IMG/VR virus record: IMGVR_UViG_3300045988_128825 | Span: 1-45,316 of that record | DNA length: 45,316 nt | Reading direction: 5' to 3' (one strand) | Origin: a virus | Part shown: piece by piece, positions 12,523 through 32,721 of the stretch | How the letters are laid out: the number at the start of each line of letters is the position of its first letter | Numbering within the stretch: the first letter of the stretch is position 1 | Made by a program: the position numbers and the translations under genes | Notes under the pieces: model-generated | Told to the model about the DNA's origin: nothing | What the model saw: the letters and a program-made list of their open reading frames with translations, nothing else | The model's database searches: none

Positions 12523-12526
12523 GAAT

Positions 12527-12556: not shown

Positions 12557-12574
12557 ATAACAGGTGGTGAAAGT

Positions 12575-13168
12575 ATGGATAAAGTTGAGATTTGTAATAT
12601 TGCTCTTAATCATATAGGCGTAGCTACAATAGAGCGGCTTGACGAAGCAAGCGAACCAGCACGAGTGTGCCGGCGTTGCTATGATTATGTCAGGCAGGCG
12701 GTTTTGAGAAAATTCCCGTGGACATTTGCAACAAGAAGCGTGCAGCTTGCCGCGCTTGCCGATGTTCCTCCTAACTGGAAATATGCATATCGGTATCCTG
12801 CTGATGCAGTGTGCTTGAGAATGATGTACAATGAGCAGTTCTGCGGACTTCCTAGAGACAATCAGTACAAAATTGTTTCTGATAAGCAGGGGAAAACCAT
12901 TTATACAAACGTTGGTAATGCATGGATTGAATATACAGTAGATGTTACTGATGCAGATTTATATGACGCTCAATTTGTAGAAGCGTTTAGTTGGAAATTA
13001 GCAGCAGAGATTGCTTATGCGCTGACAGGTAAATTAGATTTGGCTCAAATGTGCATTCAGGCATACAATGCATATTTTTCGGAAGCAAGCGCAGCAGATG
13101 CGGATGAAGAGAATTTGCTGGACCCGCATGTCGATAGATTAGCGGCGGCAAGATTTACGGGGGCATAA
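12575..13168 (+). CDS. Tail tubular protein A / adaptor (T7 gp11-like)
   Basis: ATG 12575 after GGTGGTGA gives 197 aa; MDKVEICNIALNHIGV...LRKFPWTFA pattern and position before the nozzle gene. Confidence 0.7.
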   Translation: MDKVEICNIALNHIGVATIERLDEASEPARVCRRCYDYVRQAVLRKFPWTFATRSVQLAALADVPPNWKYAYRYPADAVCLRMMYNEQFCGLPRDNQYKIVSDKQGKTIYTNVGNAWIEYTVDVTDADLYDAQFVEAFSWKLAAEIAYALTGKLDLAQMCIQAYNAYFSEASAADADEENLLDPHVDRLAAARFTGA

Positions 13169-13170
13169 TT

Positions 13171-15993: not shown

Positions 15994-16001
15994 GATGTAT
16001 T

Positions 16002-16472
16002 ATGACGAAATACGAATTTGCAATACCGACAAGAGCAGATGCAGTCTACATAGCAGCAAATTTAAAAGATAATAACCGTAAAGAACTGTTTTGTGCTATT
16101 GGTGATAATGCTTTAGATGATATATTGGGTGGGATAGAGCACAGCGTCGAGGTCGGATGCCTTAGAATCGATGGAGTACCGGCTGCAGTATACGGAGTTA
16201 GAAAACCGTCTATTATGAGCGACGATGTGCGCGTATGGCTGCTTATGACGCGAGAAATGGATAATCATAGGGTATTTGTCGGACGGTATACTAAAAAGGC
16301 TGTAAAAGGGCTTTTGGAAAGATATAGCAGGCTGTATAACTGGGTCAACGTTGGAAATGATGAGATCATCCGCTGGCTTAAATGGCTCGGTGCAAAAATA
16401 CATGAACCGGAACCATATGGTATTTACGGTCTGCCGCACCATTTTTTTGAATTTAGAAAGGATGATGAATAA
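16002..16472 (+). CDS. Internal virion protein A (gp13-like, putative)
   Basis: 156 aa, position after nozzle gene as in T7-type gene order. Confidence 0.4.
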   Translation: MTKYEFAIPTRADAVYIAANLKDNNRKELFCAIGDNALDDILGGIEHSVEVGCLRIDGVPAAVYGVRKPSIMSDDVRVWLLMTREMDNHRVFVGRYTKKAVKGLLERYSRLYNWVNVGNDEIIRWLKWLGAKIHEPEPYGIYGLPHHFFEFRKDDE

Positions 16473-17116
16473 TGGGCGTAGCAGCAACAATAGGTGCCAC
16501 TCTATTAGGTGGCTTTATTACTGGTAGAGCACAGCAGCAGCAATATAACGCTGCTGCCCAGCAAGCTGAGGTAAATGCACAGATAGCTGATCAAAACGCA
16601 GATAAGCTGCAGGCACAGGCTGAAGAGCAATCCAAGTCAAATACCATTAACGAGGAAAATAAACGCCGTCGTATGAACGCTATGCTTAGCCAGCAAAGAG
16701 CCAATATAGGTGCGTCTGGTATAGCAGCTTCCGGCAGTGCGGCCAGTGCTTTAGCTGACAGTGCATACAATATGGAAACAGAGCTTGCTATCGAACGCTA
16801 TAACTCAAGGCAAGGCGTTGAGAATATTTTTCAGCAGTCTACCGACCTTGTTAATCAACGTGATATCTATAATCAAAATGCACGCAATTACCGTAAAGCC
16901 GGTAAGCGTGCACTTATGAATAATATGCTTATGAGTGGGTTATCCCTTGCAGGTAGTTTATACAGTCCTAAGAGCGCAGGAAAGCAAGGTGCTTCCTCCA
17001 GTTCTTCAACTCCTAGTGTAACAACAGGTGCTACATATCAATTCAACAGTAGTGGAACTGGCTATAGACAAGGCAATTACAGTTATTTCCCGATGAAGCC
17101 GAAAACTTACTTCTAA
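16472..17116 (+). CDS. Internal virion protein B (gp14-like, putative)
   Basis: 214 aa; hydrophobic N-terminus, Q/A-rich coiled region, GASGIAASGSAASALADSAY; gene order. Confidence 0.5.
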   Translation: MGVAATIGATLLGGFITGRAQQQQYNAAAQQAEVNAQIADQNADKLQAQAEEQSKSNTINEENKRRRMNAMLSQQRANIGASGIAASGSAASALADSAYNMETELAIERYNSRQGVENIFQQSTDLVNQRDIYNQNARNYRKAGKRALMNNMLMSGLSLAGSLYSPKSAGKQGASSSSSTPSVTTGATYQFNSSGTGYRQGNYSYFPMKPKTYF

Positions 17117-17210: not shown

Positions 17211-17312
17211 AAACGAAAAGAGATAGTTTAACGTGTGGTAGCGTTAGCTCATCTCGTAACAAGAATGTGATTGAAAACGAGCCCGCGACCTTACGTTGGG
17301 CTTATTTTCTTG

Positions 17313-17390
17313 CTATTTTACGGCAAGAATAATGGTAGCCACGAGAATACCAAACGCTATCATTAGGGATAATGCTTGATATATGCTCAT
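17313..17390 (-). CDS. 25-aa hydrophobic peptide of the putative holin-like toxin (Hol-Tox) type I toxin type
   Basis: MSIYQALSLMIAFGILVATIILAVK; SD GGTGGTGA 4 nt upstream; own promoter; not in ORF track (too short). Confidence 0.65.
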   Translation of the reverse strand: MSIYQALSLMIAFGILVATIILAVK

Positions 17391-17451
17391 AGGATCACCA
17401 CCAATCAGTTACGGACTGATAAGCCAACATAGTTAAACTATCTCGGACAAC

Positions 17452-17480
17452 ATTATAACACACCTTTAAGCGCTTAACAA
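17452..17480 (-). promoter_or_regulatory. Near-consensus promoter for the toxin-like ORF (TTGTTA-17-TGtTATAAT on minus strand)
   Basis: Reverse complement of 17452-17480 gives TTGTTAagcgcttaaaggtgTGtTATAAT. Confidence 0.6.
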
Positions 17481-17498
17481 TTTGTTAAAGCGCTTTTT
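17468..17498 (+). terminator. Palindromic hairpin + T5 just upstream of the 758-aa gene (terminator and/or operator)
   Basis: AAGCGCTTAACAA / TTGTTAAAGCGCTT (13 bp, one bulge) followed by TTTTT; overlaps the minus-strand -35. Confidence 0.5.
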
Positions 17499-17522
17499 CT
17501 ATACCCAAAAGGAGGCTAGAAT

Positions 17523-19799
17523 ATGGCAATCGACATTTTCCAAGTAGGGGCGCAGTTAGGAGCGCCGGCAAGTAAAGTATCTAATGTTCGCTATGATAAC
17601 AGTGGGCAGCAGGCTGTTGCAAGAGAATCATCCCAGACCGGTAGAATTATTCAGGCCGGTGTTGAGCAGGTAAGAGAGCAGATCATAAGAACCGACGTTC
17701 TGCAGGCTAATAATGAGTATGTAAAACGTACTAACGATCTAAGAATGCAGTTGATGCAGAAAAAAGAAAAAGGTGCTCTTGACATTGTCGGTGAGTATGA
17801 AGCTGGTGAAAGAAAGATACGCAGCGAACTTATGGCTCAAAGTCCTCAAAGCGTAAAGTACGGCAAAGGTGCTATGTTATTTGATTACAGCACCCAGCAA
17901 ACTGATAATGCTAATCGCAGAGTTTTGGGGCAATACAGAGCGCAGCAGTTTGAAGCCTGGCAGAATACTACTTTTGCTAATTCTATAAATAGTTCTGTTC
18001 AAAAGGCTGTTTTATCTCCTAATGACCCTGCAGTTATAGCCGATGTACAAAAAGAAATTGATTACGCCATAAATTCCAGATATGGAACATATGGAAGAGA
18101 AAGGCTTGATTTAGAGTATAGAAAATGGACTGGAGTATTAGGTCAGGCGTTGATAGACAGAAGTTATGCTAATGGCGATATAAATACGGCCGAAGCTTAT
18201 GTTGAAAAATATGGTCCTTATATGGATCCGGGCGTAACGAGTGCCTATGCTAAAAATGTTTATGCTCGTAAACAAGAAGAACGGCAGTTTAACATGGGAC
18301 AGAACCTTTATGCTACTTTTGGTGAGGATGAAGGCGCTGCACGTGATTATATCTTTGGCGATAATTTTTCTAATGAAATAGATACAAATGCAATTTTAAA
18401 AGCAGCCAATGGTGATATAGGTAAGAATTTTGGTGAAAATCAGTGTACTGTAGGCGTTAATCGCTGGTTGAAAGCAGGCGGGGCTAAAGAAGGAAATACG
18501 TGGGCACCAACCAATATGGAAGATGCAAAGAAAAATGGAGTGTTTTTTACCCAACGGAATCAGCTTCGAAATGGTGACATTGTTTATTGGGACTGGGAAG
18601 GTAATGATGACAGTGATCATGTTGGTATTTATGAAAAATCTACAGGGAAAGTTATTCAAGCTGGTTCGCACGGAACAGCGAAACTTGATTTAGATCATTA
18701 TAAAGTTTTAGGGTTTGCTCATCCTATAAGTGCTGCTCCTACATTAGAAGATAAGCAGAAGGCCTGGAACAATTATGTGCAACAGGTAAATATTAATAAA
18801 TCCATTAAAGCTAATCAGCAAAATATGATCATAAAAAATATAGAACAAAGATTATGGGACAATTTTAAAACAGGTATTATTGATTCGCAGGATATGAGAA
18901 ATATGGTTTTTAGTGCTTCTGGTGGAGATGCGGATGTAGAACGGACGCTATTAAAATTCGGTGATGATTTAATAGGCATTCAGACAAAAGCTGCCGCTGC
19001 AGTATCTAATAGTGGCATTTATAAATCAATCAAGGATGCAATTACGAATAGCACTGTAACACCAGCCGAAGCAGTATCATTAATCAACCAAAACGCAACA
19101 GTCTTGGGTGAAGCAGATAGAAGCAGGTTATTGGCTTTTGCTAGAAATCAAGATCCAAGAAATAAGGATGTTGATAAACGTTTAGCTATTATAATTGATG
19201 AAACTATTGATGATAAAGTGGAACGCGGAGATTTGCAGGCTTTTCTGGATAATGCATTGCAAGATATTACTGACCCTGATGCAAGATTTGCGACAGGGAA
19301 CGAAGTTCTAAAAGAGGCGTTTAAAAATCGTGCTATTTATAAAAGTTTTAACAGTAAGCAACTTGAATGGGGCTCTTTAAAGAGTAGCCTTTCACCTAAT
19401 CTTTCCCCTTATATAGATATTTATCAAAAACGTAACGGCAATAATATTGATTTGGGAAGTGCAAAAACATTTTTTGGAGCTATAAACCCTAATGATTTAT
19501 ATCAAGTATCGGCATTGAAAAAAGTTACAGAAGAAAATAGGCCTATGGATATCCAGGAGCTCAATAAGCAGATTGCTGCTATAGCTTTGAGCAATGGTGT
19601 AGATGCAGCTCCGCATTTACTGGAGATGCCACAGCAGAATGAAACCGCAGTACAGCAAAATGAAAGTGCTCCCTGGTTCAGTGATTGGGGAGCCAGTGAG
19701 CGTACTGGTTTAGCGGCAATGAATTTCAGTGATGCTATTGAATCTATCAAACAACGTCACTTAGCGGCATTAAGAGGAGAAATTAACGAGGAGTGGTAA
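17523..19799 (+). CDS. Internal virion protein C (gp15-like) carrying a CHAP/NlpC-P60-type peptidoglycan hydrolase domain
   Basis: 758 aa; ENQCTVGVNRWL (Cys ~308) and NGDIVYWDW...SDHVGIY (His ~366) fit the CHAP Cys-His pattern; gene order. Confidence 0.65.
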   Translation: MAIDIFQVGAQLGAPASKVSNVRYDNSGQQAVARESSQTGRIIQAGVEQVREQIIRTDVLQANNEYVKRTNDLRMQLMQKKEKGALDIVGEYEAGERKIRSELMAQSPQSVKYGKGAMLFDYSTQQTDNANRRVLGQYRAQQFEAWQNTTFANSINSSVQKAVLSPNDPAVIADVQKEIDYAINSRYGTYGRERLDLEYRKWTGVLGQALIDRSYANGDINTAEAYVEKYGPYMDPGVTSAYAKNVYARKQEERQFNMGQNLYATFGEDEGAARDYIFGDNFSNEIDTNAILKAANGDIGKNFGENQCTVGVNRWLKAGGAKEGNTWAPTNMEDAKKNGVFFTQRNQLRNGDIVYWDWEGNDDSDHVGIYEKSTGKVIQAGSHGTAKLDLDHYKVLGFAHPISAAPTLEDKQKAWNNYVQQVNINKSIKANQQNMIIKNIEQRLWDNFKTGIIDSQDMRNMVFSASGGDADVERTLLKFGDDLIGIQTKAAAAVSNSGIYKSIKDAITNSTVTPAEAVSLINQNATVLGEADRSRLLAFARNQDPRNKDVDKRLAIIIDETIDDKVERGDLQAFLDNALQDITDPDARFATGNEVLKEAFKNRAIYKSFNSKQLEWGSLKSSLSPNLSPYIDIYQKRNGNNIDLGSAKTFFGAINPNDLYQVSALKKVTEENRPMDIQELNKQIAAIALSNGVDAAPHLLEMPQQNETAVQQNESAPWFSDWGASERTGLAAMNFSDAIESIKQRHLAALRGEINEEW

Positions 19800-19800
19800 T

Positions 19801-22800
19801 ATGGCAAGGTCTGTATTGTACGATGTAGCAGCGGCAGGAAAGTTTATACCAGACGATTTAAAGACTAAAGCATTACAAGGAGCTAATGCAAATAATATAT
19901 CGCTTCAAATGGCAGCTCGTAATCCTGATTATTATTTACCTAAAAACTTTGATTATGACTGGAATAAATATGAGAAGATCGCACCAAGAACAGCAGAGGC
20001 GTTAAAAGACCCTGTGCTTATGAGCGTTGCCGGTACTAAAGCTGCAGAATTTTGGGGCGAGCAAGAAAATAACTGGAAAAGTATTACAGCGCTGAAAAAT
20101 GGTTTTAAGAATGTTGCTCGCAGCGGTTATGGTGCAGTTGCACTGCTTGCTGATTTGGGTGCAGATAAAAAAGATGTTGACTTGACAACGGAATCCAAGG
20201 TTTTTAGCGCAGATACAATAGGACGGCTTTTGTATGCTGTCGGTGGAGATAAGCTAAAAACTATTGGTACTGAAGCTAAACGCATTGGTGGCAGTGAAAT
20301 ATTTAAGCCGGAAGAAGTAAAGGCTGAAACTGCGGCAGGCCAGTTTTATTATGACTTACTGCAGAATGCACCACAATTAGCGGCACAGGTCGGCGTTGCA
20401 ATCAGTACAGGCGGCTGGAGTGCTGCTGCTTTTATGGGCAGTCAGATTGCAGGCGGCCAATATTTAGATCTTACTGAAGCTGGGGTATCTAATGACAGAG
20501 CCAGAGCTGCGGCGTCTTTAAACGCTGTTGCACAGTCTGCTCTTGAAAAAGTGGGCTTGGGCAAAGTCATGGGAGCAGGAGCAAGAGCCGCTAAAATCGC
20601 AACTATGGGCGGTAAGGCCAAAGAAGTTTTTAAAACTGCATTGACAGAAGGCATTACTGAATGGATTCAGGAATACCCGGATGCTGCTGCTGAAATATGG
20701 GCTAAAAATGCGAATCTTTCCACTCAAGAGCAAATACTTAAATTTTATCAGGAATTTGGAGAAATCACTAAAAGAGGCGCTTATTCCGGTGCTATTGGTG
20801 CGGTGTTTGGTGGTCTTGGAGGTTCGGTAAGCATTGCCGTAGACCGTAATGCAAATAGAGTTATGCAGGAGCAGGCTGTACGTACTGCGGAAACGATGAA
20901 AAACAGTAAGGACGTAGATATTACCGCCAGCAAACTAGTACTGAACCAAACGACAGAAGAAAAGGCTTATGTAGATGCTGAAACCCTTTTTACATATGCG
21001 CAGGCAAATCCTAATCTGGATGTAAAAGATACCTTTGGTATAGAGGTTTCTGAACTGCAGGCTGCTGCTGTTCGTGGTGAGGATATTGAAATGCCAATGG
21101 GTACGTATTGTGCGGCAGAGGCTCAAAATCCTGGCTTTTTCCAGGCTGTAAGCAATAACGTAGCTTTTGAACAGGGCGGTTATACAGAAGAACGCGCCAG
21201 AAATAAAAAAGCTCTCCAAAGCGCTTATAAAAAAGCGTTGGAGAACGACGAGGAATTTAGAACTGCAGTTGATACTTTTAGAAATGAATTGACCGAAGCG
21301 GGACTAAATCAAAAGGAAACAGGTGACGTCCTGGCTATTTTAACCAGCCGTGCTATGATTGCTAATCCTGATGACCCTATGCAGTATTTCAGAGATAACC
21401 CTTTAAGCTTCAAACGAGTTGTCAGCACTCCTAATGGGCGATATATGCAAACTAAAAGCGCTAACGAAAAATTGCTTGAGGATGAAAATAACTTTTCTGG
21501 TATCGTAGATGAATATAAAGCCGGTACGTTGAACGAAACGAAACCATATAAGGTAATAACTACGCCGCTTGCGATAAACCTTGCAGGCGGTAAAATTTTG
21601 CCTGTAACTATTGACGGTGGCAGGATCAACCATATTTTTGAAAAACACTTTGATGGTATGACACCGGACCTTTTGAAACAATTACCAAGGGCATTTGCTG
21701 ATCCTATAATGGTATTAGATTCTTATTCAGGGCGGAAGGTGGTAGTGCTGGATTTGAAAGATGCGCAAGGCTCTACTATCATTGTTCCACTTGATCTTGA
21801 TGTAAGCCGTGACCGTTATAAAGTAAATGCCATTAACAGCGCTTATGGTAAAGGCGGTGCTAATGGCACAAATTATAATTGGTTTATTGAGCATAATATC
21901 AAAAAAGGCAGAGTTGCATATGTAAATAAAGAAAAAACCGCCAAGTGGTTACAGTCTGATAGCAGCGATTCCGCTATCAAAGGCACCGACCTTGACGGTT
22001 TTCTTAATAATAGTATACCAGATGAAAATGCACTCCGCAAGAGACGAGAAGAAATGCAGGGATACTACCAGACAGCTTTTCACGGAAGCCCACATAAATT
22101 TAATAAGTTTAATTTAGAAAATATCGGAACAGGTGAAGGTGCTCAGTCTCACGGCTGGGGACTGTATTTTGCTAAAGATCGTAGTGTAGCAGGGAATAGA
22201 TATAGATTTATAGGAAAAGCAGCTGATAATTCTGTAACTTTTGGTGACAGGCCGATTATGGAATTATATGATTCCTTAGAACGTCAGGCCGGTACTATTT
22301 CAGATAATGCTGAAGCCCAGAAATATTATGATAAGATGGCACTGATTGAAGATATAGAATATAAGGGATCGACTGTTGATATTAACGAAGAAAATTTTTC
22401 TCCTGCAGCGGTAAAATGGTTTAAGAGAGAAATTAAACCACGGTTAAGAATAAAAGGATCGCTTATCGAAGTAGACATCCCAGAGAATAATGTTTTGCTG
22501 GATGAACAAAAAACACTTGCCAAACAGGATGAGAATGTAAAAAATCTGCTTAAAAATTTTTATAAATCATTAAGAAGCGAACAAAGAAGTGCAGTAAAAG
22601 AACAATTAAAACAGTCAGTGCGAAAAAATGAAACCAGCGAGGAATATTCAGAAAAAATTAATAAAACGAGAAAGATAGATTCAACTTTATCAAGATTAAA
22701 TAAAATTCTTAAGCCGTTGCCAGATACAGCACCAAAATTTATACAAAGAGCAAAAGAGTTGTCAATGTCGGAATTAAAAGGAGAAGGATATGATATTGGA

Positions 22801-25800
22801 CGACTGAAAACAGATCAACAATATTATGATAGTATCGTAAATTCTCTCCAAGCAGAACAAAAAGAATTACAAGCGGCTATTGCGGCAGAAGAACAGACTA
22901 TTCAAGAGGCCTATAATAAAGAGTTAGAAACTATAGAGAAATCTAGAGGAGCAGGTCTTTTTAACAGTAATGCTATTACAGGAGATAATTTTTATGCAGC
23001 ATTATCAGAAGTTTTGGGTGGAGCGAAAGAAGCATCGATTGCTTTAAATAAGGCAGGAATTAAAGGCATTACTTATTACGGTGATCTTGATGGGCGTGCT
23101 TTTGTAGTATTTGATGATAAATCCATAAAGATTCTTAACAAGTATAATCAAAAAGTTAATAACGATAAGAAAGGTTCTATCACCTGGGACGAAGAAGGTA
23201 AAGCAATTATCAGCCTGTTTGAAGGTGCTGATATGAGCACTGTTATTCATGAAGCTGTCGGACATTACTTTATTGAGAATCTCATACGTGAAGGGGCACT
23301 CCCTAATGCTACAGAGCAGATGAAAAAAGACCGTCAGACTATGCTTGATTATGCAGGTGTAACTAAAGACTGGGATAGCTTGTCGCAGGAAGAAAAAACA
23401 GCAGCACATGAACGCTGGGCAGAGGCCGCAGAAACTTATATGCTTGAAGGCAAGGCGCCCTCAAAAGAGCTGCAGCCGGTATTTAACAGGTTCAAAAAAT
23501 GGCTGCTTGCTGTTTATAACGCCGTTTTTTCGGATAAGCGCAGTAAAAATGCTGTTCCAATCAACGATGAAGTAAGGCAGGTTTTTGACAGGATGCTGGC
23601 AAGTGAAGAGCAAATATCAGAAATGGAGCGTATCGACGGTTATTTTTCTGCTTTGCCAGATGTTGTATTAGATGCACTTTCAGAACCACGTAAGCAAATG
23701 CTGCGTAATTTTGCTGCTAAAGCTCACGATAAGGCAGTACAGTTATTAACAAAAGAAAGCCTTGTTAATTTCAATCAGGAGCGTAAAGACCGAATTCAAA
23801 AATATCGTGAAGATGTAGAGCCGCAGGTTAAAGAAGCGATTGCAAAACAGCCGTTATATATGGCTTCGGAGCAGATACTTGATATTGCATCTGATTTAAA
23901 AACGGCTAAGGGCATAGCTAACAGATATTTAGAAGGTAATTTTGATGAAAGTAAAATGGCAACTTTTGATATGATAGCTGAAGCTAATGGTTTTACTTCC
24001 GGTGACGAGCTGGCTAAAACGATTATGTCAGAACCATCTTTTAATGGTGCGGTTAACAGACATATTGATGAAATGGTGCAAGACGCCTTCCCTGATATTT
24101 ACAAAGAGAGAGGGCTTGCTGAAGAAGCTGCACGTGATGCTATGTATAATGACGAGAGCGGTCTTTTGATAAATACAGAAGCACAGCTTATTGAGGATAA
24201 AGCACAAGGTTTGTTGAAGGGTCAGCGTGATGCTGAAACTCTTAGAAAACTTGCTGTTGCACGCAAGCAAACAGCTAAAATCCAGGCACAGATGGACCTG
24301 CAGAATAGAGTAAAATTAAAGGAGGCGTTGAATACCCAAAAGTATATTACTGCAGAAAGAAACGCTGCGGCTAAAGCTGCTGTGGCATTGGAAAATGATG
24401 ATTATTCTGCTGCGGTCCGATATAAAAACGTCCAGGCGTTTAATCATGCTTGTGTAGTTGAAAGCGTAAGACTGCGTAATCAGTATGCTAAGTGGCAGAA
24501 TTATTTCAGGAAGCAGGCTAAAGCTAAAAGGGAAACGTGGGGTAATGAAAGAAACTTTATTCAAGCAGCAGCAATTATGGAAAGGTTCGGTTATAAGCGT
24601 AAAGATTATTCTGATTTTGAAAAGACAGAAACTTTATCAGACTATCTGAATGATATGGATGATCTTTATGACAATGTTGCAGTTGCTGATTGGATAATGG
24701 ATGAGAATGTTAGCATTACAAATCCTCGTGAACGTATGACGGCAAGCCAGCTTGAAGATATAGTAAATGCGCTTAAAAATATCAAAGCGATCGCTAAACA
24801 GGAAATGAGTATCAATGCTTTACAGAAAGGTGCTACCTATGCTGAATTTAAAGCTGAAGCACAGGAAACACTTAATAAGCTGAAAACTATCTGGAAACCG
24901 CAGGTTGGCGTTGCACAGCAGCCTACAGTAATGGAGAAGCTAAAAGCATCTTTACGCAGTACGGACAATCTTTTTGAAATGATGGATGACTGGCAGTATG
25001 GATTTTTCAGCAAACATTTTGGCGCAGCTATTCGAGAAGCGGCCGATAATGAAACAAGAAAAATTTTAGAATATGAGGAAAAAACAGCGCAGGCTTACAG
25101 GGAATGGCTGCCGGATAAAGCTGCAGAAAAGGCGGCCGATTATCAGGAAAAATATGACGAGCTAGGGACTTCTGTAGATAAGCACGTTTTATTAAAAATG
25201 CTTATGAATTTAGGCAACGAGAGCAGTGCCAGAGTATTGTGCAGCACTAGACCGGTAGGCTTTGAAAGTTCTGCCTTGTGGGTAGATGGCGATATCGTAC
25301 AGACTAAAATCAATTTACTTGACTTCTTAGGGCGTAATCTTACTGAAGCGGATATAAAATATGCACAGGCTAAGATAGACATTGCAGAGATGTACTGGTC
25401 TGAAATGGAAGCTCTTGAAACTCGTTGGACAGGGTTTAGTCCTAAGAAAGTAGAAGCGTCGCCTGTAGAGCTGACGTTATCAGACGGCAAGACTGTTGTT
25501 ATGCGTGGCGGTTATTTCCCGCTGATGCGTGACGGTGATACTGGTTCTAAACACGCTGGGCAAGAAGTTATTTCTGATACTGACCCCAGACAAGGACGCA
25601 ATATTAGAACAATGAGCACTAGACGAGGCCATTTAAAAGAACGTGTTAAGGCTAAATATCCTGTTAATCTAAAACGTGGAGCAGAGTTTAATGTTGCTAT
25701 GGATGCGATACATGATCTGTGTTTCCGTGAGGTTATGGGCGATTTCCGCAAAATTATGAACGATCAGGAAATGTATACTCTGATTAAAGAAAAATTAGGC

Positions 25801-26949
25801 CTGGCCGATTTCTCCGCCTTTAAAGAATATCTTGAACGTGCGGCAAATCCTCAAGGTACTAACAGCGGCTCTGTTGGTGAAAGCTGGATGGGCAGTGTTG
25901 CTAACTGGCTTAGGGCTCGTACTGTAAATGCTGCCATTATGCTTAACCTTAAAACTGCCGTTCAGAACTTGGGTAATCCCTTGCTTTATGGTAATGCTGT
26001 AGATGGTTTTGGATATAGTGATGTCGTTGCCGCTGTGAGCAATTACAGTATGAATATGCAACTTGCAGAGGGCTATAAATCGGCTAAGGAATTTGTTTAC
26101 AGTAAATCCCCTTGGATGAAAGAAAGGTCTGTGCTTCCTGATATTTCCCTGCGGGATATGAAAGAAATGGAAAGCCTGAATCCTATAGAAAAGAAAGCTG
26201 TTGAATTTGGCACAAGATTGCTGGTCGCTACTGATAATCTTTCTGCTATTCCGGTATGGATGCAGGCGTATGGTAAAAAAATAAGGGCTGGTGCAGGCGA
26301 AGCAGAAGCTGTGGACTTTGCCAATACGGTTATTAGACGTACACTTGGCAGCAGCAGAGTTACGGAGGTTGCACCGCTTTTGCGTGGCGGACCTATGCTT
26401 AAACTGTTTACTACCTTCCAAGGCTTCTTCAATACACAATATAATCAGTGGGCCAGAGAGTACAATATCTTCTTAAAAGAAAAAGACATAATGCGTCTTA
26501 CTTCGTTTGTGGGAGCTAAGTTTGTAATGTTTGTTTTTATAAACTTGATGTTGTCGCCCGAAGATCCATTTGAAGAAGATAAGGATGAATATCAAAAGAT
26601 ATCAAAAGAACTGCTTACTTACCCTATGAGTTTAGCCGGACCGGTTGGACAGGTTGGTAATGCTATCTGGAGCAGGGCTTTAGGCATGCAGACTTACGGG
26701 TATAGAATGACTGCAGTACAAGGCACGATAGAGCAAATGGAACGTGCTGCCGGTAAGGTACAAAAGGTTTACCAGGGCAAAGCAGATTATGACGAATTGG
26801 TTGAGCCTACTGCAACATTTGTTGGAACAGCATTAGGCGTGCCTGCACAGTTAAACAAATTATTCTTTAACGGATATGATATCTTGTTCAACGGTATGGA
26901 GCCGGAAGTTGGCGACATCTTTAGACGTAGGCCGAAAAAGGAACGGTAA
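19801..26949 (+). CDS. Giant (2382 aa) internal virion/ejection protein (gp16-like position) with several effector-like modules
   Basis: Single uninterrupted ORF; INHIFEKH module (~aa 611), FHGSPHKF...GWGLYFA module (~aa 761-790), HEAVGH (aa 1150-1155), hydrophobic segment FVGAKFVMFVFINLMLS near C-terminus. Confidence 0.75.
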   Translation: MARSVLYDVAAAGKFIPDDLKTKALQGANANNISLQMAARNPDYYLPKNFDYDWNKYEKIAPRTAEALKDPVLMSVAGTKAAEFWGEQENNWKSITALKNGFKNVARSGYGAVALLADLGADKKDVDLTTESKVFSADTIGRLLYAVGGDKLKTIGTEAKRIGGSEIFKPEEVKAETAAGQFYYDLLQNAPQLAAQVGVAISTGGWSAAAFMGSQIAGGQYLDLTEAGVSNDRARAAASLNAVAQSALEKVGLGKVMGAGARAAKIATMGGKAKEVFKTALTEGITEWIQEYPDAAAEIWAKNANLSTQEQILKFYQEFGEITKRGAYSGAIGAVFGGLGGSVSIAVDRNANRVMQEQAVRTAETMKNSKDVDITASKLVLNQTTEEKAYVDAETLFTYAQANPNLDVKDTFGIEVSELQAAAVRGEDIEMPMGTYCAAEAQNPGFFQAVSNNVAFEQGGYTEERARNKKALQSAYKKALENDEEFRTAVDTFRNELTEAGLNQKETGDVLAILTSRAMIANPDDPMQYFRDNPLSFKRVVSTPNGRYMQTKSANEKLLEDENNFSGIVDEYKAGTLNETKPYKVITTPLAINLAGGKILPVTIDGGRINHIFEKHFDGMTPDLLKQLPRAFADPIMVLDSYSGRKVVVLDLKDAQGSTIIVPLDLDVSRDRYKVNAINSAYGKGGANGTNYNWFIEHNIKKGRVAYVNKEKTAKWLQSDSSDSAIKGTDLDGFLNNSIPDENALRKRREEMQGYYQTAFHGSPHKFNKFNLENIGTGEGAQSHGWGLYFAKDRSVAGNRYRFIGKAADNSVTFGDRPIMELYDSLERQAGTISDNAEAQKYYDKMALIEDIEYKGSTVDINEENFSPAAVKWFKREIKPRLRIKGSLIEVDIPENNVLLDEQKTLAKQDENVKNLLKNFYKSLRSEQRSAVKEQLKQSVRKNETSEEYSEKINKTRKIDSTLSRLNKILKPLPDTAPKFIQRAKELSMSELKGEGYDIGRLKTDQQYYDSIVNSLQAEQKELQAAIAAEEQTIQEAYNKELETIEKSRGAGLFNSNAITGDNFYAALSEVLGGAKEASIALNKAGIKGITYYGDLDGRAFVVFDDKSIKILNKYNQKVNNDKKGSITWDEEGKAIISLFEGADMSTVIHEAVGHYFIENLIREGALPNATEQMKKDRQTMLDYAGVTKDWDSLSQEEKTAAHERWAEAAETYMLEGKAPSKELQPVFNRFKKWLLAVYNAVFSDKRSKNAVPINDEVRQVFDRMLASEEQISEMERIDGYFSALPDVVLDALSEPRKQMLRNFAAKAHDKAVQLLTKESLVNFNQERKDRIQKYREDVEPQVKEAIAKQPLYMASEQILDIASDLKTAKGIANRYLEGNFDESKMATFDMIAEANGFTSGDELAKTIMSEPSFNGAVNRHIDEMVQDAFPDIYKERGLAEEAARDAMYNDESGLLINTEAQLIEDKAQGLLKGQRDAETLRKLAVARKQTAKIQAQMDLQNRVKLKEALNTQKYITAERNAAAKAAVALENDDYSAAVRYKNVQAFNHACVVESVRLRNQYAKWQNYFRKQAKAKRETWGNERNFIQAAAIMERFGYKRKDYSDFEKTETLSDYLNDMDDLYDNVAVADWIMDENVSITNPRERMTASQLEDIVNALKNIKAIAKQEMSINALQKGATYAEFKAEAQETLNKLKTIWKPQVGVAQQPTVMEKLKASLRSTDNLFEMMDDWQYGFFSKHFGAAIREAADNETRKILEYEEKTAQAYREWLPDKAAEKAADYQEKYDELGTSVDKHVLLKMLMNLGNESSARVLCSTRPVGFESSALWVDGDIVQTKINLLDFLGRNLTEADIKYAQAKIDIAEMYWSEMEALETRWTGFSPKKVEASPVELTLSDGKTVVMRGGYFPLMRDGDTGSKHAGQEVISDTDPRQGRNIRTMSTRRGHLKERVKAKYPVNLKRGAEFNVAMDAIHDLCFREVMGDFRKIMNDQEMYTLIKEKLGLADFSAFKEYLERAANPQGTNSGSVGESWMGSVANWLRARTVNAAIMLNLKTAVQNLGNPLLYGNAVDGFGYSDVVAAVSNYSMNMQLAEGYKSAKEFVYSKSPWMKERSVLPDISLRDMKEMESLNPIEKKAVEFGTRLLVATDNLSAIPVWMQAYGKKIRAGAGEAEAVDFANTVIRRTLGSSRVTEVAPLLRGGPMLKLFTTFQGFFNTQYNQWAREYNIFLKEKDIMRLTSFVGAKFVMFVFINLMLSPEDPFEEDKDEYQKISKELLTYPMSLAGPVGQVGNAIWSRALGMQTYGYRMTAVQGTIEQMERAAGKVQKVYQGKADYDELVEPTATFVGTALGVPAQLNKLFFNGYDILFNGMEPEVGDIFRRRPKKER

Positions 26950-26952
26950 AAG

Positions 26953-26990
26953 AAAACCCCCTCGAATTTGAGGGGGTTTATATTTTCTCA
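26953..26990. terminator. Bidirectional intrinsic terminator between convergent genes
   Basis: AAACCCCCTC-GAATTT-GAGGGGGTTT flanked by A-run and T-run. Confidence 0.85.
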
Positions 26991-27272
26991 GAATCCATTG
27001 TTGTATCTATAAATTGCGTCATTTGCTTCACGGATAGCCGCAGCTTGTGCTTCTTGAATACGCTGGATATCATTGTTACAGTTTTCTACATATTTCTTTG
27101 CTTCTTCGACATAAAGTTCAACTTCATATTTGCTCGGATTGTAAGGTAAATATGAATTGAATTCTGGATACATTGACAAACTTAAATTAGATCCACCAAA
27201 AACATATGCAAACGCTATACTTGAACACCATAAAATAGAAATTATTGAAATTATTAGAATCCTTTTAAACAT
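26988..27272 (-). CDS. Secreted 94-aa protein (signal peptide + helical domain), function unknown
   Basis: MFKRILIISIISILWCSSIAFA/YV...; AAAGGAGAAG SD; A+T-rich island. Confidence 0.6.
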   Translation of the reverse strand: MFKRILIISIISILWCSSIAFAYVFGGSNLSLSMYPEFNSYLPYNPSKYEVELYVEEAKKYVENCNNDIQRIQEAQAAAIREANDAIYRYNNGF

Positions 27273-27302
27273 TAATTCTTCTCCTTTAATATTTGATTTG
27301 TT

Positions 27303-27713
27303 TTATATGCCTATATATTTTCCGTTGCCGTCACCAATTAAATTTAATAGGTGAAAAAATAATTCTTCACCTATAGATCCTGGAATAATAGGTTTTATTT
27401 TATAAAGTGGTTTATAAGAATCTTCTATTTGACCATTTTTATAGGCAATAATGTACAAATTTACTAAGGAAAAATCTTTTGTAAAAAAAGTAGTTTGTAT
27501 TAAAATCTGTTTATTTTCAGAAGGTTCTACTCTTGCGACCCAGGCGGTTGCTTTTGTATCGTCAAATGTGATTGTTCCTCTATCTATAAAATAACCAAAT
27601 TGGTTATCTGAATCTACCCAGCTCCAGCGAGCTGGATCTAAGTTATTGGCAGCACATAAATTTGTGATTAAAGAAAATACAAGAATTAAAAATAATAAAA
27701 TTGTTTTTTTCAT
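27303..27713 (-). CDS. Secreted 136-aa protein, function unknown
   Basis: Start at internal ATG 27713 (MKKTILLFLILVFSLITNLCA/ANN...) after AAGAAGGG SD; the track start 27833 would overlap the upstream gene. Confidence 0.6.
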   Translation of the reverse strand: MKKTILLFLILVFSLITNLCAANNLDPARWSWVDSDNQFGYFIDRGTITFDDTKATAWVARVEPSENKQILIQTTFFTKDFSLVNLYIIAYKNGQIEDSYKPLYKIKPIIPGSIGEELFFHLLNLIGDGNGKYIGI

Positions 27714-27754
27714 AATAACCCTTCTTTTATTATTTCGCACAATTAAGTTATTGG

Positions 27755-28324
27755 CTATATTCCTTTTACGCTGCCGGTAAAACCTATAGCAGAAGTTTGA
27801 CCTTTTGAATTTATCCCAAAAAATAATGCCCAAATCGGATTATATTTATTATGATAGGCATACCAATAGGATACAATTCCGTTATATTCTGCTTTAGTGT
27901 TTTTAATAATGGTTCCCGGAGTTCCGTATTTAGAAACAATTAAATTTTCTGAAGAACCAATTGATATTCCTCTTATAGTTGATACGTTGGGCTTAGTACA
28001 AATAATTTTATATATTTTACCATAGTCATCTTTGTTTATAGTTGGCTTATCATTATAATTTAAAGTTATAATACCATTTTCAAATAATATAGTTGCTTCA
28101 CTACTTCTGGCAACACCGTCACTATAAATATAATTTTCTGTCAGGATTTCGCCTAAAATGCGTGAAGCATCGTTAATAGTGGTATATTTTTCTGCTTGTA
28201 ACGGCCCGCAATTGATCAAGAATAAGTCATCTACATTAGTGCTACCAGCAGCAATAACTTTGGCAGATAAATTGAAAATAGATAAAAAGATAAAAGCAAA
28301 AATAACAAGTGTAATTTTTTTCAT
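27755..28324 (-). CDS. Secreted 189-aa protein, function unknown
   Basis: MKKITLVIFAFIFLSIFNLSAKVIAAG...; own extended -10 (TGATATAAT, plus coords 28349-28357) downstream of a terminator. Confidence 0.65.
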   Translation of the reverse strand: MKKITLVIFAFIFLSIFNLSAKVIAAGSTNVDDLFLINCGPLQAEKYTTINDASRILGEILTENYIYSDGVARSSEATILFENGIITLNYNDKPTINKDDYGKIYKIICTKPNVSTIRGISIGSSENLIVSKYGTPGTIIKNTKAEYNGIVSYWYAYHNKYNPIWALFFGINSKGQTSAIGFTGSVKGI

Positions 28325-28365
28325 AAATAATGCTCCTTTCTTGTCACAATTATATCACATTTATA

Positions 28366-28396
28366 AACGAAAATAAAACAGCCCGTAGGCTGTTTT
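28366..28396 (-). terminator. Intrinsic terminator after the XRE-family gene
   Basis: Minus strand: AAAACAGCC-TAC-GGGCTGTTTT followed by ATTTTCG. Confidence 0.65.
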
Positions 28397-28400
28397 AAAG

Positions 28401-29105
28401 TTAAGGTTTATTAAGGTATTCTTCTATGAATTTATTCAAGTCATTATCTTGATTGTCTACTATTATATATAAATCATCAATAATAGAATGTTTTTTTGAA
28501 TCTGTAATGAATTTAAACTGACCTGAAATAAAAGCAAAAAGTCCGATTACGACTTCACTGTCTCTGAAAAATTTGAAAAGCAAATAACCATTCTGTGAAA
28601 TAGGATCAATTGCGGTGAAATATGATTCCTGTTCTAAAAAATCATAATCATTAAATTGAGGGAAAAAGCTCAAAATAAAATCATTTATGATTGGATGTGT
28701 TGAATTAAAATGTTTGTTTTTATCCAAAGAAACCGGATTTCCATTGTCATCCAAAACCATTATTTCTTCTTTTAAGTCTTCTGGTATCTTTTTTATGAAT
28801 GGAACACTTTCAACTTTAGGGAAGATATCCCAGTGAACCAAAGAATTCTGTGTATCGTATATTAGTTTTTCTACTAATTTATAGACTTTAGAGTCAGACT
28901 TTGATTGAGTATCTAAAAGCAGATAATCTAAAGTTACATTAAATAATTCTACAAGTTTTTTTAATAATTCTGGATCGCTAGGAATACTTTTTCCCGTTTC
29001 GTAGTAACTAACAATTCTCGAGGATACTCCTAACTTTATGGCTAAATCTTTTTGGGTCATACCCTTGGCTTCACGGAGTTTCTTTAGATTTTCACTGAAA
29101 GACAT
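28401..29105 (-). CDS. XRE-family HTH regulator with ~165-aa C-terminal domain of unknown function (Mnt-analog position)
   Basis: MSFSENLKKLREAKGMTQKDLAIKLGVSSRIVSYYETGKSIP; ATG 29105 after AGGTGGTG (track start 29117 is GTG inside the SD). Confidence 0.8.
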   Translation of the reverse strand: MSFSENLKKLREAKGMTQKDLAIKLGVSSRIVSYYETGKSIPSDPELLKKLVELFNVTLDYLLLDTQSKSDSKVYKLVEKLIYDTQNSLVHWDIFPKVESVPFIKKIPEDLKEEIMVLDDNGNPVSLDKNKHFNSTHPIINDFILSFFPQFNDYDFLEQESYFTAIDPISQNGYLLFKFFRDSEVVIGLFAFISGQFKFITDSKKHSIIDDLYIIVDNQDNDLNKFIEEYLNKP

Positions 29106-29125
29106 ATTAATCACCACCTAAAGCA

Positions 29126-29154
29126 ATTATAACAATAAGAACCATAAGACACAA
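29126..29154 (-). promoter_or_regulatory. Promoter of the XRE-family gene (TTGTGT-17-TGtTATAAT on minus strand)
   Basis: Reverse complement of 29126-29154. Confidence 0.5.
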
Positions 29155-29184
29155 TATTTTTCTCAAAAAACATCAAGACGTATA

Positions 29185-29213
29185 TTGACATAACTAACGT
29201 ATTACGTTAAAAT
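29185..29213 (+). promoter_or_regulatory. Promoter TTGACA-17-TAAAAT with palindromic operator AACGTA-T-TACGTT in the spacer
   Basis: -35 29185-29190, -10 29208-29213, palindrome 29196-29208; divergent from the XRE gene promoter. Confidence 0.65.
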
Positions 29214-29245
29214 TAAAAGCAACAAACGAGAAAGGAGTATTAAAG

Positions 29246-29416
29246 ATGAGGCCAACAATTGATTTTAAAGGTGATCTTGGAGCAGTACTTAGATACCACT
29301 GTACAAAAGTGGGCATTAGTATTGCTGGCTATGTCAAGGGGTTAGTGTATGATGATTTGTTAAAGAAGTATCCTAACTTACTTAATGAAACAAAAAAAGA
29401 AACTGTCACACGCTAA
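29246..29416 (+). CDS. 56-aa ribbon-helix-helix (Arc/CopG-like) protein (putative)
   Basis: MRPTIDFKGDLGAVLRYHCTKVGISIAGYVKGLVYDDLLKKY: short N-terminal strand + two helices; AAAGGAG SD; sits directly upstream of the antirepressor. Confidence 0.5.
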   Translation: MRPTIDFKGDLGAVLRYHCTKVGISIAGYVKGLVYDDLLKKYPNLLNETKKETVTR

Positions 29417-29539
29417 CCGACCAAAGTTACCGTGACAGTTTCAAAGCAGAAAGGCGTACGGAAAACGTACTATTTCTTAAAATAGTATAGCATTTTTACG
29501 TATGCCTTTCAAGATATTTATTTTGGGAGGCATATTTTT

Positions 29540-30274
29540 ATGAAAAACGAACTGAAGATTTTTGAAAACGAAGCTTTTGGTAAAGTTAGAGTAATTGAAA
29601 AAAATAATGAACCGTGGTTTGTAGGAAAGGACGTAGCGGAGGTACTTGGATATCGGAATACTCGTGATGCTTTAGCTAAACACATAAAAGTAATGCATAA
29701 AGCTGACGTCGCAATTTACGACGGCAGCCAAAAACGTAGCCATACAATTATTGATGAAGCGGGGTTTTATTCATTAGTCCTTCGTTCAAAATTGCCAGCT
29801 GCTGAAGCTTTTCAGGAGTGGGTAGTTGCTGAGGTAATTCCTTCTATTCGCAAAACTGGGTCGTATTCTGTAAATCAGGATATAAAAGCTAGAGAAGTAG
29901 AAGCTCGCTTAAATAACAGTCGTGCAAGAGTTGCATCGACATTCCTTAAAGTTGCTCAAATGACTGATCTGCTAGAATACAAACATATCTGCCAGCAGAA
30001 AGCAGCAGAGGTTTTGAGCGGCGTGCCATTACTACCGATGCAATCTATAAACGAAAATACTTTATCTGCTGATGAGGTCGGCAGAGAACTTGGAATCAGT
30101 GGTAATATGGTTGGCAGGATTGCGAATCAGCATAATTTAAAAACTGCTGAATATGGTAAATATTTTTATGACAAATCACGTCATTGTCAAAAACAGGTAG
30201 AAACATTTAGATATTATAGGAAGGTAATTCCAGTAATACAAAGTATTATTGATAATAAAAAAGTAGGAGCGTAA
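29540..30274 (+). CDS. ant: Bro-N domain antirepressor
   Basis: IFENEAFGKVRVIEKNNEPWFVGKDVAEVLGY...IDEAGFYSLVLRSKLPAAEAFQEWVVAEVIPSIRKTG is a typical Bro-N domain; C-terminal half antirepressor-like. Confidence 0.85.
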   Translation: MKNELKIFENEAFGKVRVIEKNNEPWFVGKDVAEVLGYRNTRDALAKHIKVMHKADVAIYDGSQKRSHTIIDEAGFYSLVLRSKLPAAEAFQEWVVAEVIPSIRKTGSYSVNQDIKAREVEARLNNSRARVASTFLKVAQMTDLLEYKHICQQKAAEVLSGVPLLPMQSINENTLSADEVGRELGISGNMVGRIANQHNLKTAEYGKYFYDKSRHCQKQVETFRYYRKVIPVIQSIIDNKKVGA

Positions 30275-31233: not shown

Positions 31234-32721
31234 ATGACGGTACAGAATACGACAGTTAAAGATATTTATGTTGGTAATGGAGCGACAACGAAATTCCCAA
31301 TAACATTTCAGATGACGGATCATCCTGAATATATAAAAGTATATATTACAGGTGATGATAGCGTTGCCGTAGAAACGGAGAATTTTTCTGTTGATCTTGG
31401 AGCTAAAACAGTTACTTATCCAGCTAATGGAGATCCGCTGCCTGATGGTCACAAAATAACTATTTATCGTGAGCTGCCATTGTATCAGCTAATGAACCTG
31501 GTTAATCAAGGTCCGTTTTTTGCAGAGAATATTGAATTGTCTTTTGACGATCTAACTTTTATATGTCAGCAATTAAATGAAAAATTGAATAGGACATTAT
31601 CTGCTGGTATTGATGTAAGTAATTTTAATAATACTTTTCCGGTAAAGGCTGGAATGAGTTTTAGAATCAATGATGCTGGTGATGGGCTTGTGCTGACGGA
31701 GGACCCTGCGAGAGTGTTACCTTTAGCTAAAGATGTATTAGAGCAAACGAAACAGGTCAAAGAGAGCGCCGTTAACGAAACAACAAATATTAAAAATACT
31801 GCAATCGAAGAGCTGACCGCTATAAAAGATGCTGCAGTAAATGAGACTACGGAAATAAAGGACGAAGCTGTTGCTGCTAAAAATACCGCTGTTGAAGCTG
31901 CTACTACTGCGGCAGAAGATGCTGCGCAGAAAACAGTTGAGAATATTACTACTGAAATAGATAGTAAAGTCGCTGCTGCCGAGGATTCTAAAAAGGCTGC
32001 GGCTCAATCTGCTTCAAGTGCTGCGGATAGTATGAAAGCTGCGCAAACTTCAAAAGAAGCTGCAGAAGCAAGTGCTAATAGCGCTTCTAGCTCAGCAACT
32101 ACAGCTACAGAGCAGGCAGACAGAGCGCAGGGTATTGCTGATAGCTTAGAAGGTTTAGCTGGTATTACTGGTATAGCGACAACAGAGGAAGCTATTGCTG
32201 GTGTAGTTGATAACAAAGCAATGACGCCTTTAAAGGTAAAATCAGCAATAGAAGCACAAGTTCCAATTCAAACAATAATTAATTTAATTTATCCTGTAGG
32301 CAGTATCTATTCGTCTACAAATTCGACATCACCTGCTGATCTTTTTGGCGGCACATGGGATGCAATGCCTGCTGGACGTGTATTACTCGCACAGGGAACA
32401 TCAGAATGGGGCGGAGAATATAAAGCCGGCAGTACCGGTGGTACAGAAGCAGAAACACTAACGATTGAGCAAATACCGTCGCACAATCACGATGCCGCTA
32501 CGAATTCAACTGGTGCACATACGCACAACATCACTGTTGGTTATGATGTATCAGACGGTACCGGTTGGGGAAAATATCTGCCTGGATCTAATAATAAGCT
32601 AACAACGAATTCAACTGGTACACATTCACATACAGTTAATATCAGTAATAGTGGCGGCGGGGAATCTCATAATAATATGCAGCCATATATAGCGGTCTAT
32701 ATATGGATGCGCACGGCATAA
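31234..32721 (+). CDS. Tail fibre with C-terminal phage tail-collar-type domain
   Basis: MTVQNTTVKDIYVGNGATTKFPITF N-terminus, Ala/Glu/Thr coiled region, C-terminus GSIYSS..FGGTWDAMPAGRVLLAQG..LTIEQIPSHNH..HTHN..HSHT..NMQPYIAVYIWMRTA. Confidence 0.85.
   Translation: MTVQNTTVKDIYVGNGATTKFPITFQMTDHPEYIKVYITGDDSVAVETENFSVDLGAKTVTYPANGDPLPDGHKITIYRELPLYQLMNLVNQGPFFAENIELSFDDLTFICQQLNEKLNRTLSAGIDVSNFNNTFPVKAGMSFRINDAGDGLVLTEDPARVLPLAKDVLEQTKQVKESAVNETTNIKNTAIEELTAIKDAAVNETTEIKDEAVAAKNTAVEAATTAAEDAAQKTVENITTEIDSKVAAAEDSKKAAAQSASSAADSMKAAQTSKEAAEASANSASSSATTATEQADRAQGIADSLEGLAGITGIATTEEAIAGVVDNKAMTPLKVKSAIEAQVPIQTIINLIYPVGSIYSSTNSTSPADLFGGTWDAMPAGRVLLAQGTSEWGGEYKAGSTGGTEAETLTIEQIPSHNHDAATNSTGAHTHNITVGYDVSDGTGWGKYLPGSNNKLTTNSTGTHSHTVNISNSGGGESHNNMQPYIAVYIWMRTA

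Follow-up and report, generated by a model that had tools for sequence, protein, structure and literature searches.

Polyvalent proteins have been defined as multi-enzyme proteins for which injection together with the DNA is predicted (Iyer, Burroughs, Anand, de Souza, Aravind 2017, PMC5512222). Their commonest hub is a zincin-like metallopeptidase, for which self-processing has been proposed and HEXXXH variants are mentioned (PMC5512222). Head packaging and injection of an ADP-ribosyltransferase (ART) have been shown for T4 Alt and are predicted for the N4-like virion RNA polymerase fusion of Roseovarius Plymouth podovirus 1 (PMC5512222). In the Stx phage phi24B, mass spectrometry detected the 2811-aa polyvalent protein gp47 in virions, and a role as the ejection protein was proposed for it (bioRxiv 10.64898/2026.04.10.717836). 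Here we describe a gene for a protein of 2382 amino acids (aa) at positions 19801-26949 (plus strand) of IMG/VR virus record IMGVR_UViG_3300045988_128825, whose whole stretch of 45,316 nucleotides (nt) is referred to as the window. A sequence-only reading of this DNA had proposed that the protein occupies the position of T7 gp16, is injected, and carries several effector modules. Pfam and other profile matches, together with synteny, supported this central claim, although the domain boundaries, the presumed catalytic acid and the type of one motif had to be corrected. We consider it likely that the gene encodes a large internal-virion (ejection) protein of a temperate BPP-1-like podovirus, a polyvalent protein of the phage type, which would act as the carrier of an ejected enzyme cassette in the manner set out below.

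The open reading frame (ORF) starts with an ATG at 19801, ends with a stop codon at 26947-26949 and contains no internal stops. All motifs quoted in the earlier reading lie at the residues it gave for them (HIFEKH at 611-616, AFHGSPH at 759-765, GWGLYFA at 785-791, IEVDIPE at 889-895 and HEAVGH at 1150-1155). Megablast of the gene against phage records gave no DNA match, and relatives were found at the protein level only. A PHROGs search matched residues 1113-2348 to phrog_9880 (E 9e-143), blastp aligned residues ~1090-2365 with six phage homologues at 23-26% identity (E 5e-55 to 4e-76), and tblastn with the C-terminal half returned 50 phage records. Giant proteins are encoded at the same position in Bordetella phage BPP-1 (Bbp10, 2052 aa), Caulobacter BL94 (gp37, 2039 aa), Pseudomonas AF (gp16, 2213 aa), Cobetia Carin1 (gp32, 2854 aa), Octadecabacter BD1 (gp16, 2986 aa) and Vibrio MZH0603 (1902 aa). 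As judged by C-terminal homology and gene position, the 2382-aa protein is a Bbp10-type giant internal protein of BPP-1-like podoviruses, and its length is normal for a family that ranges from 1902 to 2986 aa. The observation that it is almost twice the size of T7 gp16 is numerically correct (about 1.8 times 1318 aa), but the size is ordinary for its own family, and homology to gp16 was not detected.

The N-terminal part is also linked to this family, as hhalign paired residues 186-540 with residues 228-598 of the BPP-1 protein (probability 99%, E 9e-18). Because of this N-terminal match and the C-terminal blastp matches, both flanks of the protein can be regarded as conserved and the middle as variable. 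The conserved N-terminal scaffold (aa 186-540, nt 20356-21420, plus strand as are all parts of the protein) contains a hydrophobic segment rich in Gly and Ala at aa 329-347 (nt 20785-20841), which has an equivalent in all six homologues. It is preceded by a lineage-specific segment (aa 1-185, nt 19801-20355) at the place where the six annotated relatives have an LPD22 domain. Pfam gave no match for aa 1-360, and the hhalign alignment to the family does not include aa 1-185; few relatives share this variant N terminus, which lacks LPD22. A word-indexed homologue search with aa 1-585 retrieved only four proteins, all near-identical; it was hhalign that gave the link to BPP-1.

At the other end, the conserved C-terminal body (aa 1271-2365, nt 23611-26895) is delineated by blastp, by phrog_9880 and by invariant alignment columns, and is presumed to be the conduit-forming or structural part. 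A Kyte-Doolittle scan placed the strongest hydrophobic segment of the protein at aa 2233-2251 (nt 26497-26553), and in five of the six homologues it detected a counterpart at the matching relative position. The C-terminal hydrophobic stretch FVGAKFVMFVFINLMLS pointed out previously was located in the same region, at aa 2236-2252. The body also contains GGYFPL (aa 1903-1908, window 25507-25524), which is part of a GGYxPL motif that is invariant in the C-terminal body of 22 representatives and that hhalign pairs weakly with 'KGTYVPHVYD' of T7 gp16 (E 0.13, not significant). A PLxRFG/LPD39 domain was considered for the surrounding 'YFPLMRDG' and rejected, as a Pfam LPD39 match is absent and the motif is the family-invariant GGYxPL.

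Between the conserved flanks, the family carries an exchangeable set of domains. Pfam searches of the N-terminal halves found LPD22 in all six annotated phage homologues, accompanied by a variable module that differs from one to the next: PBECR1 in BPP-1, ART-PolyVal in BL94 (80 bits) and Octadecabacter BD1, LPD23 in AF and PBECR5 in Carin1. The MZH0603 protein showed no variable module beside LPD22 in Pfam. Among 22 full-length representatives, Pfam identified LPD22 in seven, ART-PolyVal in six, LPD3 and MuF_C in five each and PBECR5 in one. A homologue search with aa 560-1320 returned 123 proteins, most of them with PF18760, PF18798 (LPD3) or PF18819. The named sources of five cassette relatives (P0023, P0029, P0033, P0044 and P0049) are gut or rumen anaerobes (Acidaminococcus, Desulfovibrio piger, Selenomonas), which hints that the habitat of this phage lineage may be similar.

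The position of the gene agrees with its assignment. It is the last and largest of the internal-core genes and follows a gp13-like gene (16002-16472, plus strand; Pfam Phage_T7_Gp13), a gp14-like gene (16472-17116, plus strand; Pfam T7_gp14) and a gene at the gp15 position for a 758-aa protein with a Pfam CHAP domain (17523-19799, plus strand), and PHROG internal-virion-protein families were also matched in this group; a tail-fibre gene (31234-32721) lies downstream. The assignment to the gp16 position is therefore borne out by gene order, and the arrangement is that of T7, where gp16 comes after gp13, gp14 and gp15 and before the tail fibre. The two proteins differ in that no N-terminal transglycosylase of the gp16 kind was found here by Pfam or PHROG searches, the muralytic CHAP domain being in the preceding gene instead. 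Alignment of the family profile with T7 gp16 by hhalign did not detect homology (probability 0.45%, E 0.13). The CHAP domain, a peptidoglycan hydrolase domain of the NlpC-P60 type, occupies aa 306-377 of the 758-aa protein; homology of that protein to T7 gp15 was tested and rejected, since no similarity was found. Relatives have a transglycosylase or a lysozyme in the gene preceding the giant protein, where this phage has CHAP.

The TAA of the 758-aa gene (19797-19799) abuts the start of the giant gene, because of which the two are probably translationally coupled, and a Shine-Dalgarno sequence, GAGGAG, can be read at 19788-19793 (plus strand), 7 nt before the ATG. Directly 3' of the stop codon lies a strong bidirectional intrinsic terminator hairpin (26954-26979, both strands); the search that detected it found four terminator-like sites, against 0.1 expected. 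The hairpin is perfect and GC-rich, has T-runs on both strands and separates the giant gene from convergent genes at 26988-29117.

The first of the three central modules is a MuF_C domain (PF18819), which Pfam matched at aa 618-713 (nt 21652-21939) with an E value of 2.8e-17; the full domain spans about aa 585-720. The score of 63.2 bits on the whole protein, or 66.8 bits on the segment, is well above the curated (gathering) cut-off of 27.6 bits. MuF-C belongs to PBECR, a set of six families of predicted metal-independent endoRNases (PMC5512222), and the suggestion of a PBECR-like nuclease at aa 585-720 was thus borne out. In an alignment of 22 relatives, H616 (21 of 21 aligned sequences), P635, N676, S680 (Ser or Thr in 19 of 22) and Y682 are conserved. 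The H-x3-KH block on which that suggestion had been based does contain the conserved histidine, H616, but its first histidine, H611, is not conserved. From these residues the domain looks catalytically intact.

The second module had been recognized as an ART-like core at aa 755-900. Its kind was correctly named, but the domain does not end near residue 900; it is split into three pieces by two insertions. The N-terminal piece (aa 753-797, nt 22057-22191) contains H761-G762-S763 on strand 1, the GTGEGAQ-HGWGLYFA loop and the strand with Y789. It is followed by helical insertion 1 (aa 798-882, nt 22192-22446), which is absent from compact homologues, and by the middle ART strands (aa 883-925, nt 22447-22575; G-S-L-I-E-V-D-I-P-E-N-N-V-L-L-D-E-Q-K). 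Helical insertion 2 (aa 926-1074, nt 22576-23022) is a long, coiled-coil-like hairpin that is absent from the close relative P0001, and the C-terminal piece (aa 1075-1117, nt 23023-23151), with the pattern ASxxLNxxGIKGITYxG..DGRxFVVFDDKxIxI, holds D1105 and D1106. The stretch GIKGITYYGDLDGRAFVVFDDKSIKI (GIKGITYY...FVVFDD), which had been assigned to the lead-in of the zincin domain, instead closes the ART domain as its C-terminal part; a greedy profile alignment (probability 71%) pairs it with 'GHDGVIV...NEYVVFNPEQIK', where canonical ART-PolyVal ends.

Pfam scored ART-PolyVal (PF18760) on aa 740-960 at 20.3 bits (E 1e-3, profile positions 3-81 only), against a gathering cut-off of 31.2 bits. 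Despite this score, the link of the module to ART-PolyVal can be called firm at the level of sequence comparison, because relative P0007 of the same ART subfamily passes the cut-off at 35.7 bits, a jackhmmer profile built from the compact member P0054 (aa 345-548) matches the ART-PolyVal domain of BL94 gp37 (E 3.6e-12), and hhalign of the ART subfamily against canonical ART-PolyVal gave an E value of 1.4e-5 (probability 80%). The P0054-based profile also matches the 2382-aa protein itself, in three pieces (753-842, 882-958 and 1015-1121; E 3.9e-26). Conservation among 66 relatives is high for H761 (60), G762 (66), S/T763 (65) and Y789 (66), and G778, G780, G785 and G787 are kept in all 66; every residue that is at least 90% conserved in the ART alignment is present in the 2382-aa protein. 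An AlphaFold model of the domain reached a mean predicted local distance difference test (pLDDT) score of 81.3 with a plausible strand order (aa 756-763, 788-791, 887-894, 899-901, 1089-1094, 1098-1103 and 1110-1115). H761 and Y789 both lie on predicted strands, and the insertions are modelled as helices (model residues 72-134; aa 911-1049). We therefore classify module 2 as a divergent ART-PolyVal-type predicted ADP-ribosyltransferase of the H-Y-[D/E] clade.

The acidic residue of the predicted active site is less clear. The glutamate of IEVDIPE had been proposed as the catalytic acid, which is probably incorrect, since the canonical Glu position aligns with A1100, albeit in an alignment of low probability. 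The acids of IEVDIPE lie on a different strand, although they too are conserved among the 66 relatives (E890 in 47, an acidic residue at position 892 in 56 and at position 895 in 60). The clade has been described as H-Y-D with the Asp in strand 5 (PMC5512222). D1105 and D1106, each conserved in 51 of 66 relatives, are found at the end of the strand to which the canonical Glu aligns, and one or the other is a candidate for the strand-5 acid that fits this description.

The interior of the ART domain differs between otherwise near-identical phages. The closest relative is contig L008 (Logan assembly SRR22902003), which has the same synteny and in blastn matches window 17215-22173 at 97.1% identity and window 23043-26985 at 97.3%. 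The intervening stretch, window 22174-23042 (plus strand), which encodes aa 792-1081, is replaced in L008 by 284 nt, leaving an ART interior of about 95 aa as compared with 290 aa here. The G+C content falls to 0.33-0.36 at window 22100-23000, against ~0.41 around it, and this dip coincides with the swapped interior. In the ART subfamily, fragments range from 182 to 452 aa, with the length differences falling at the two insertion points. Because of the L008 swap, the low G+C content and this length range, the ART interior is a hot spot of exchange, and the exchange of cassettes may reflect selection on target choice. In L008 the homologous gene (10001-16566) is annotated as two ORFs (1261 and 935 aa) that overlap; a frameshift or a fault in the assembly around the counterpart of aa ~1450 may account for the split.

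The third module, a zincin-like metallopeptidase-type domain (aa 1118-1270, nt 23152-23610), contains H1150-E1151-x3-H1155, followed by E1204 49 residues downstream and by P1220. The zincin HExxH motif that had been read at 1150-1155 is present and invariant, but HEAVGH is strictly HExxxH, with one extra residue, and the zincin fold itself was not confirmed. In each of the six phage homologues, the shared region begins with HE[SAFL]GH. The motif is constant in a 49-sequence alignment, as HExxH in most members and in the one-residue-longer form (HEAVGH, HEAMGH, HEALGH or HEGAGH) in the 2382-aa protein and its nearest relatives. In an alignment of 19 sequences (A1), H1150, E1151, H1155, E1204 and P1220 are invariant, and the same H, E, H and E are invariant in a second alignment of 22 full-length proteins (A4). 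In an exhaustive search with a profile of the domain, at least 12,449 clusters (formed at 50% identity) scored at E<=1e-3, of which 5,659 reached E<=1e-30; most are proteins of 1.9-3.3 thousand residues. The structure model (pLDDT 75, core >80) places the motif in a helix after two strands (model residues 28-49) and E1204, the candidate third zinc ligand, in a later helix (model residues 79-99). The HEAVGH block had been listed among the parts that a conduit would not need; it is instead the first domain of the family-wide C-terminal half. Because it is invariant and opens the half that the family has in common, the HExxxH domain is core machinery and not optional effector cargo.

Taken as a whole, the protein resembles the Bbp10 group in its gene position after the tail tube and nozzle, small internal proteins and a ~700-aa muralytic protein, in the N-terminal scaffold, in a homologous C-terminal region of ~1250 aa that in the relatives starts at HExxH, in a variable polyvalent cassette in mid-protein and in the C-terminal hydrophobic segment (five of six). 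It differs from that group in the absence of LPD22, in HExxxH instead of HExxH, in an identity of only 23-26%, and in pairing MuF_C with a split ART that bears two helical insertions. With phage-type polyvalent proteins (PMC5512222) it shares the combination of unrelated enzymatic domains in a single virion-gene-linked polypeptide, namely MuF-C/PBECR, an ART of the H-Y-D clade and a zincin-like hub. It carries at least two disparate biochemical domains (MuF_C/PBECR, ART-PolyVal-type and HExxxH...E) and lies among late virion genes, with terminase, portal, capsid, nozzle and gp13-/gp14-like genes upstream and a tail fibre downstream. There is no difference in kind from these proteins; the domain order and the ART insertions are lineage-specific, and the zincin-like domain has no Pfam peptidase match. 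Like phi24B gp47, it is a giant polyvalent protein with a MuF-C domain, although the other domains of gp47 are LPD5, LPD1 and LPD38 and phi24B belongs to a different lineage. If it is packaged as predicted, it also has parallels among ARTs that travel in the head and are injected with the DNA: T4 Alt, for which this is shown, and the predicted case of Roseovarius Plymouth podovirus 1. Alt, however, is a separate small protein of the R-S-E clade, whereas the ART described here is of the H-Y-[D/E] type, embedded in an ejection protein and interrupted.

What is observed (which domains are present and in what order, conserved flanks, hydrophobic segments, gene order and a variable cassette) can be combined into a model of how such a protein may act. 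The 2382-aa protein would be made late and packaged in the capsid core together with the gp14-like protein and the CHAP-bearing gp15-like protein, and at infection it would be ejected through the tail. A trans-envelope channel would be built with the help of the conserved N- and C-terminal parts and the hydrophobic segments in them, and the central RNase/ART cassette would enter the cytoplasm alongside the DNA. There, the RNase module may cut host or defence RNA and the ART module may modify host or defence proteins using NAD+, while the zincin-like domain would cut its own polypeptide and so release the cargo from the scaffold. It is tempting to go one step further and to view the ART as a scaffold with a hypervariable, horizontally exchanged interior (the two fixed insertion sites and the strand between them) that selects the target, and, in the wider family, the invariant zincin-like domain between cargo and scaffold as the release protease that enables the exchange of cargo. 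We put this extension forward tentatively and hold it to be possible rather than probable; if it were true, an injected enzyme would be retargeted by the swapping of cassettes.

The zincin-like domain could also serve a different purpose. Instead of processing its own polypeptide, it might be an effector or penetration enzyme whose substrates are host proteins or components of the host envelope (lipoproteins, or the peptide stems of peptidoglycan). A peptidoglycan-degrading role has been proposed for the metallopeptidase of the phi24B giant protein (bioRxiv 10.64898/2026.04.10.717836), an effector role is allowed for some metallopeptidase domains (PMC5512222), and the location of the domain in the invariant core of the family is what would be expected of a penetration function. 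The adjacent 758-aa protein, however, already has a peptidoglycan hydrolase in its CHAP domain, as does the preceding gene of the relatives in its transglycosylase or lysozyme, and the domain always stands at the junction of the variable cassette and the conserved body, which fits a release protease. We find an envelope or host-protein substrate unlikely, although less so than the two alternatives considered below.

Several results weigh against the interpretation of the gene product as an ejected protein with active enzymes. We infer packaging, ejection, processing and every enzymatic activity, and the role in a conduit rests on gene position and hydrophobic segments, with no homology to T7 gp16 detected. 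The ART-PolyVal score of the protein itself is below the cut-off (20.3 vs 31.2 bits). The position of the Glu in the canonical 'NEYVVF' is occupied by A1100 here and by Cys or Asn in the subfamily (again in the profile alignment of 71% probability), and I889 replaces a residue that is aromatic in most of the subfamily; even the reaction may be one other than ADP-ribosyl transfer. Foldseek confirmed neither an ART nor a zincin fold. With the ART model it returned only coiled-coil matches among solved structures (PI3K iSH2 on top), caused by the helical insertion, and profile searches with both ART alignments gave no meaningful match among solved-structure sequences. For the zincin-like domain, no Pfam peptidase model matched even at E<=10, Foldseek against solved structures returned nothing significant, and a profile search of solved-structure sequences with the zincin alignment found nothing. 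The top Foldseek match of the zincin model, to penicillin acylase helices (E 0.5), was rejected as noise, and lethal factor (1pwv, rank 22, E 1.9) was not taken as evidence. In a viral structure library the same model retrieved only members of its own family.

Another alternative is that the protein is essentially a structural conduit or core protein, in which the enzyme-like modules persist as relics that have lost their activity or serve only as folded spacers or for binding, as has been proposed for the PBECR domain of Mu MuF; Mu's own MuF-C copy is catalytically inactive (PMC5512222). The alanine at the ART Glu position, I889 and the lack of fold confirmation would all agree with such a loss of function. 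Yet the module retains all ART residues that are at least 90% conserved, MuF_C retains H616, N676 and S680, and HExx(x)H...E is invariant in the 19- and 22-sequence alignments and belongs to a profile that finds more than 12,000 clusters. Conservation of this extent in polar, catalytic-type residues would be unexpected for spacers, and we regard the relic interpretation as improbable. A final alternative casts the RNase and the ART as weapons directed at rival phages, or as toxins from which the lysogen profits, and not as counter-defence or host-takeover effectors delivered at infection. It could draw on the temperate lifestyle (integrase, repressor, antirepressor) and on a 2022 survey which notes that HYD2-family ARTs also occur in bacterial polymorphic toxins and could act as toxins or virulence factors (PMC9503650). 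We regard it as improbable as well, since the modules are embedded in a virion scaffold protein, and the gene for that protein, probably coupled to the core gene before it and closed by a terminator, is placed in the late structural operon between internal-core and tail-fibre genes, and not in a moron or lysogeny-expressed position.

The wider neighbourhood completes the picture of the phage. Upstream of the internal-protein genes, PHROGs and Pfam identified the large terminase (6410-7921), the portal (8166-9863), a Bbp19-like protein (9863-10201), a GP7-type capsid protein (10855-11835), a Bbp16-like protein (11828-12241), tail tube A (12539-13168) and the nozzle (13171-15993). The window further encodes a DNA methyltransferase (663-1664, plus strand), a repressor-like regulator (28401-29117, minus strand), an antirepressor (29540-30274), a tyrosine integrase (38126-39187, minus strand) and an Erf-like annealing protein (41838-42554, plus strand). 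Because an integrase, a repressor and an antirepressor are present, the phage (or prophage) is temperate. A low-G+C gene block at 26988-30274 (~0.28-0.31 over 26900-27800) follows the giant gene and breaks up the structural operon before the tail-fibre gene is reached; where the window carries this repressor/antirepressor block, L008 has pRha/ANT genes. Searches of the 2382-aa protein against NCBIfam found nothing, and phmmer of the whole protein against solved-structure sequences gave no meaningful match. Weak Pfam matches to Fumble, DUF6175, BAR_3 and others were rejected because they were below the cut-offs and fell on helical or low-complexity stretches.

The 2382-aa protein is a further member of a known and very large family. 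Its domain types were already described in 2017, and the concept of polyvalent ejection proteins has been published, so that the gene adds detail and not a new principle; only the exchange of the ART interior, seen between near-identical phages, extends somewhat past earlier descriptions. No experiments on the domain types of the Bbp10 / phrog_9880 family were reported in the literature examined. The locus does provide a gene-order-anchored example that joins the computational concept of polyvalent proteins with the physical ejection proteins of short-tailed phages. Across the family, conserved scaffold parts of the largest internal-core protein frame an exchangeable enzyme cassette, and an invariant protease-like domain stands where the two meet. 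Should the predicted activities prove real, an RNase and a transferase that uses NAD+ would be delivered just as the DNA enters, at the right time and place to disarm host defences.

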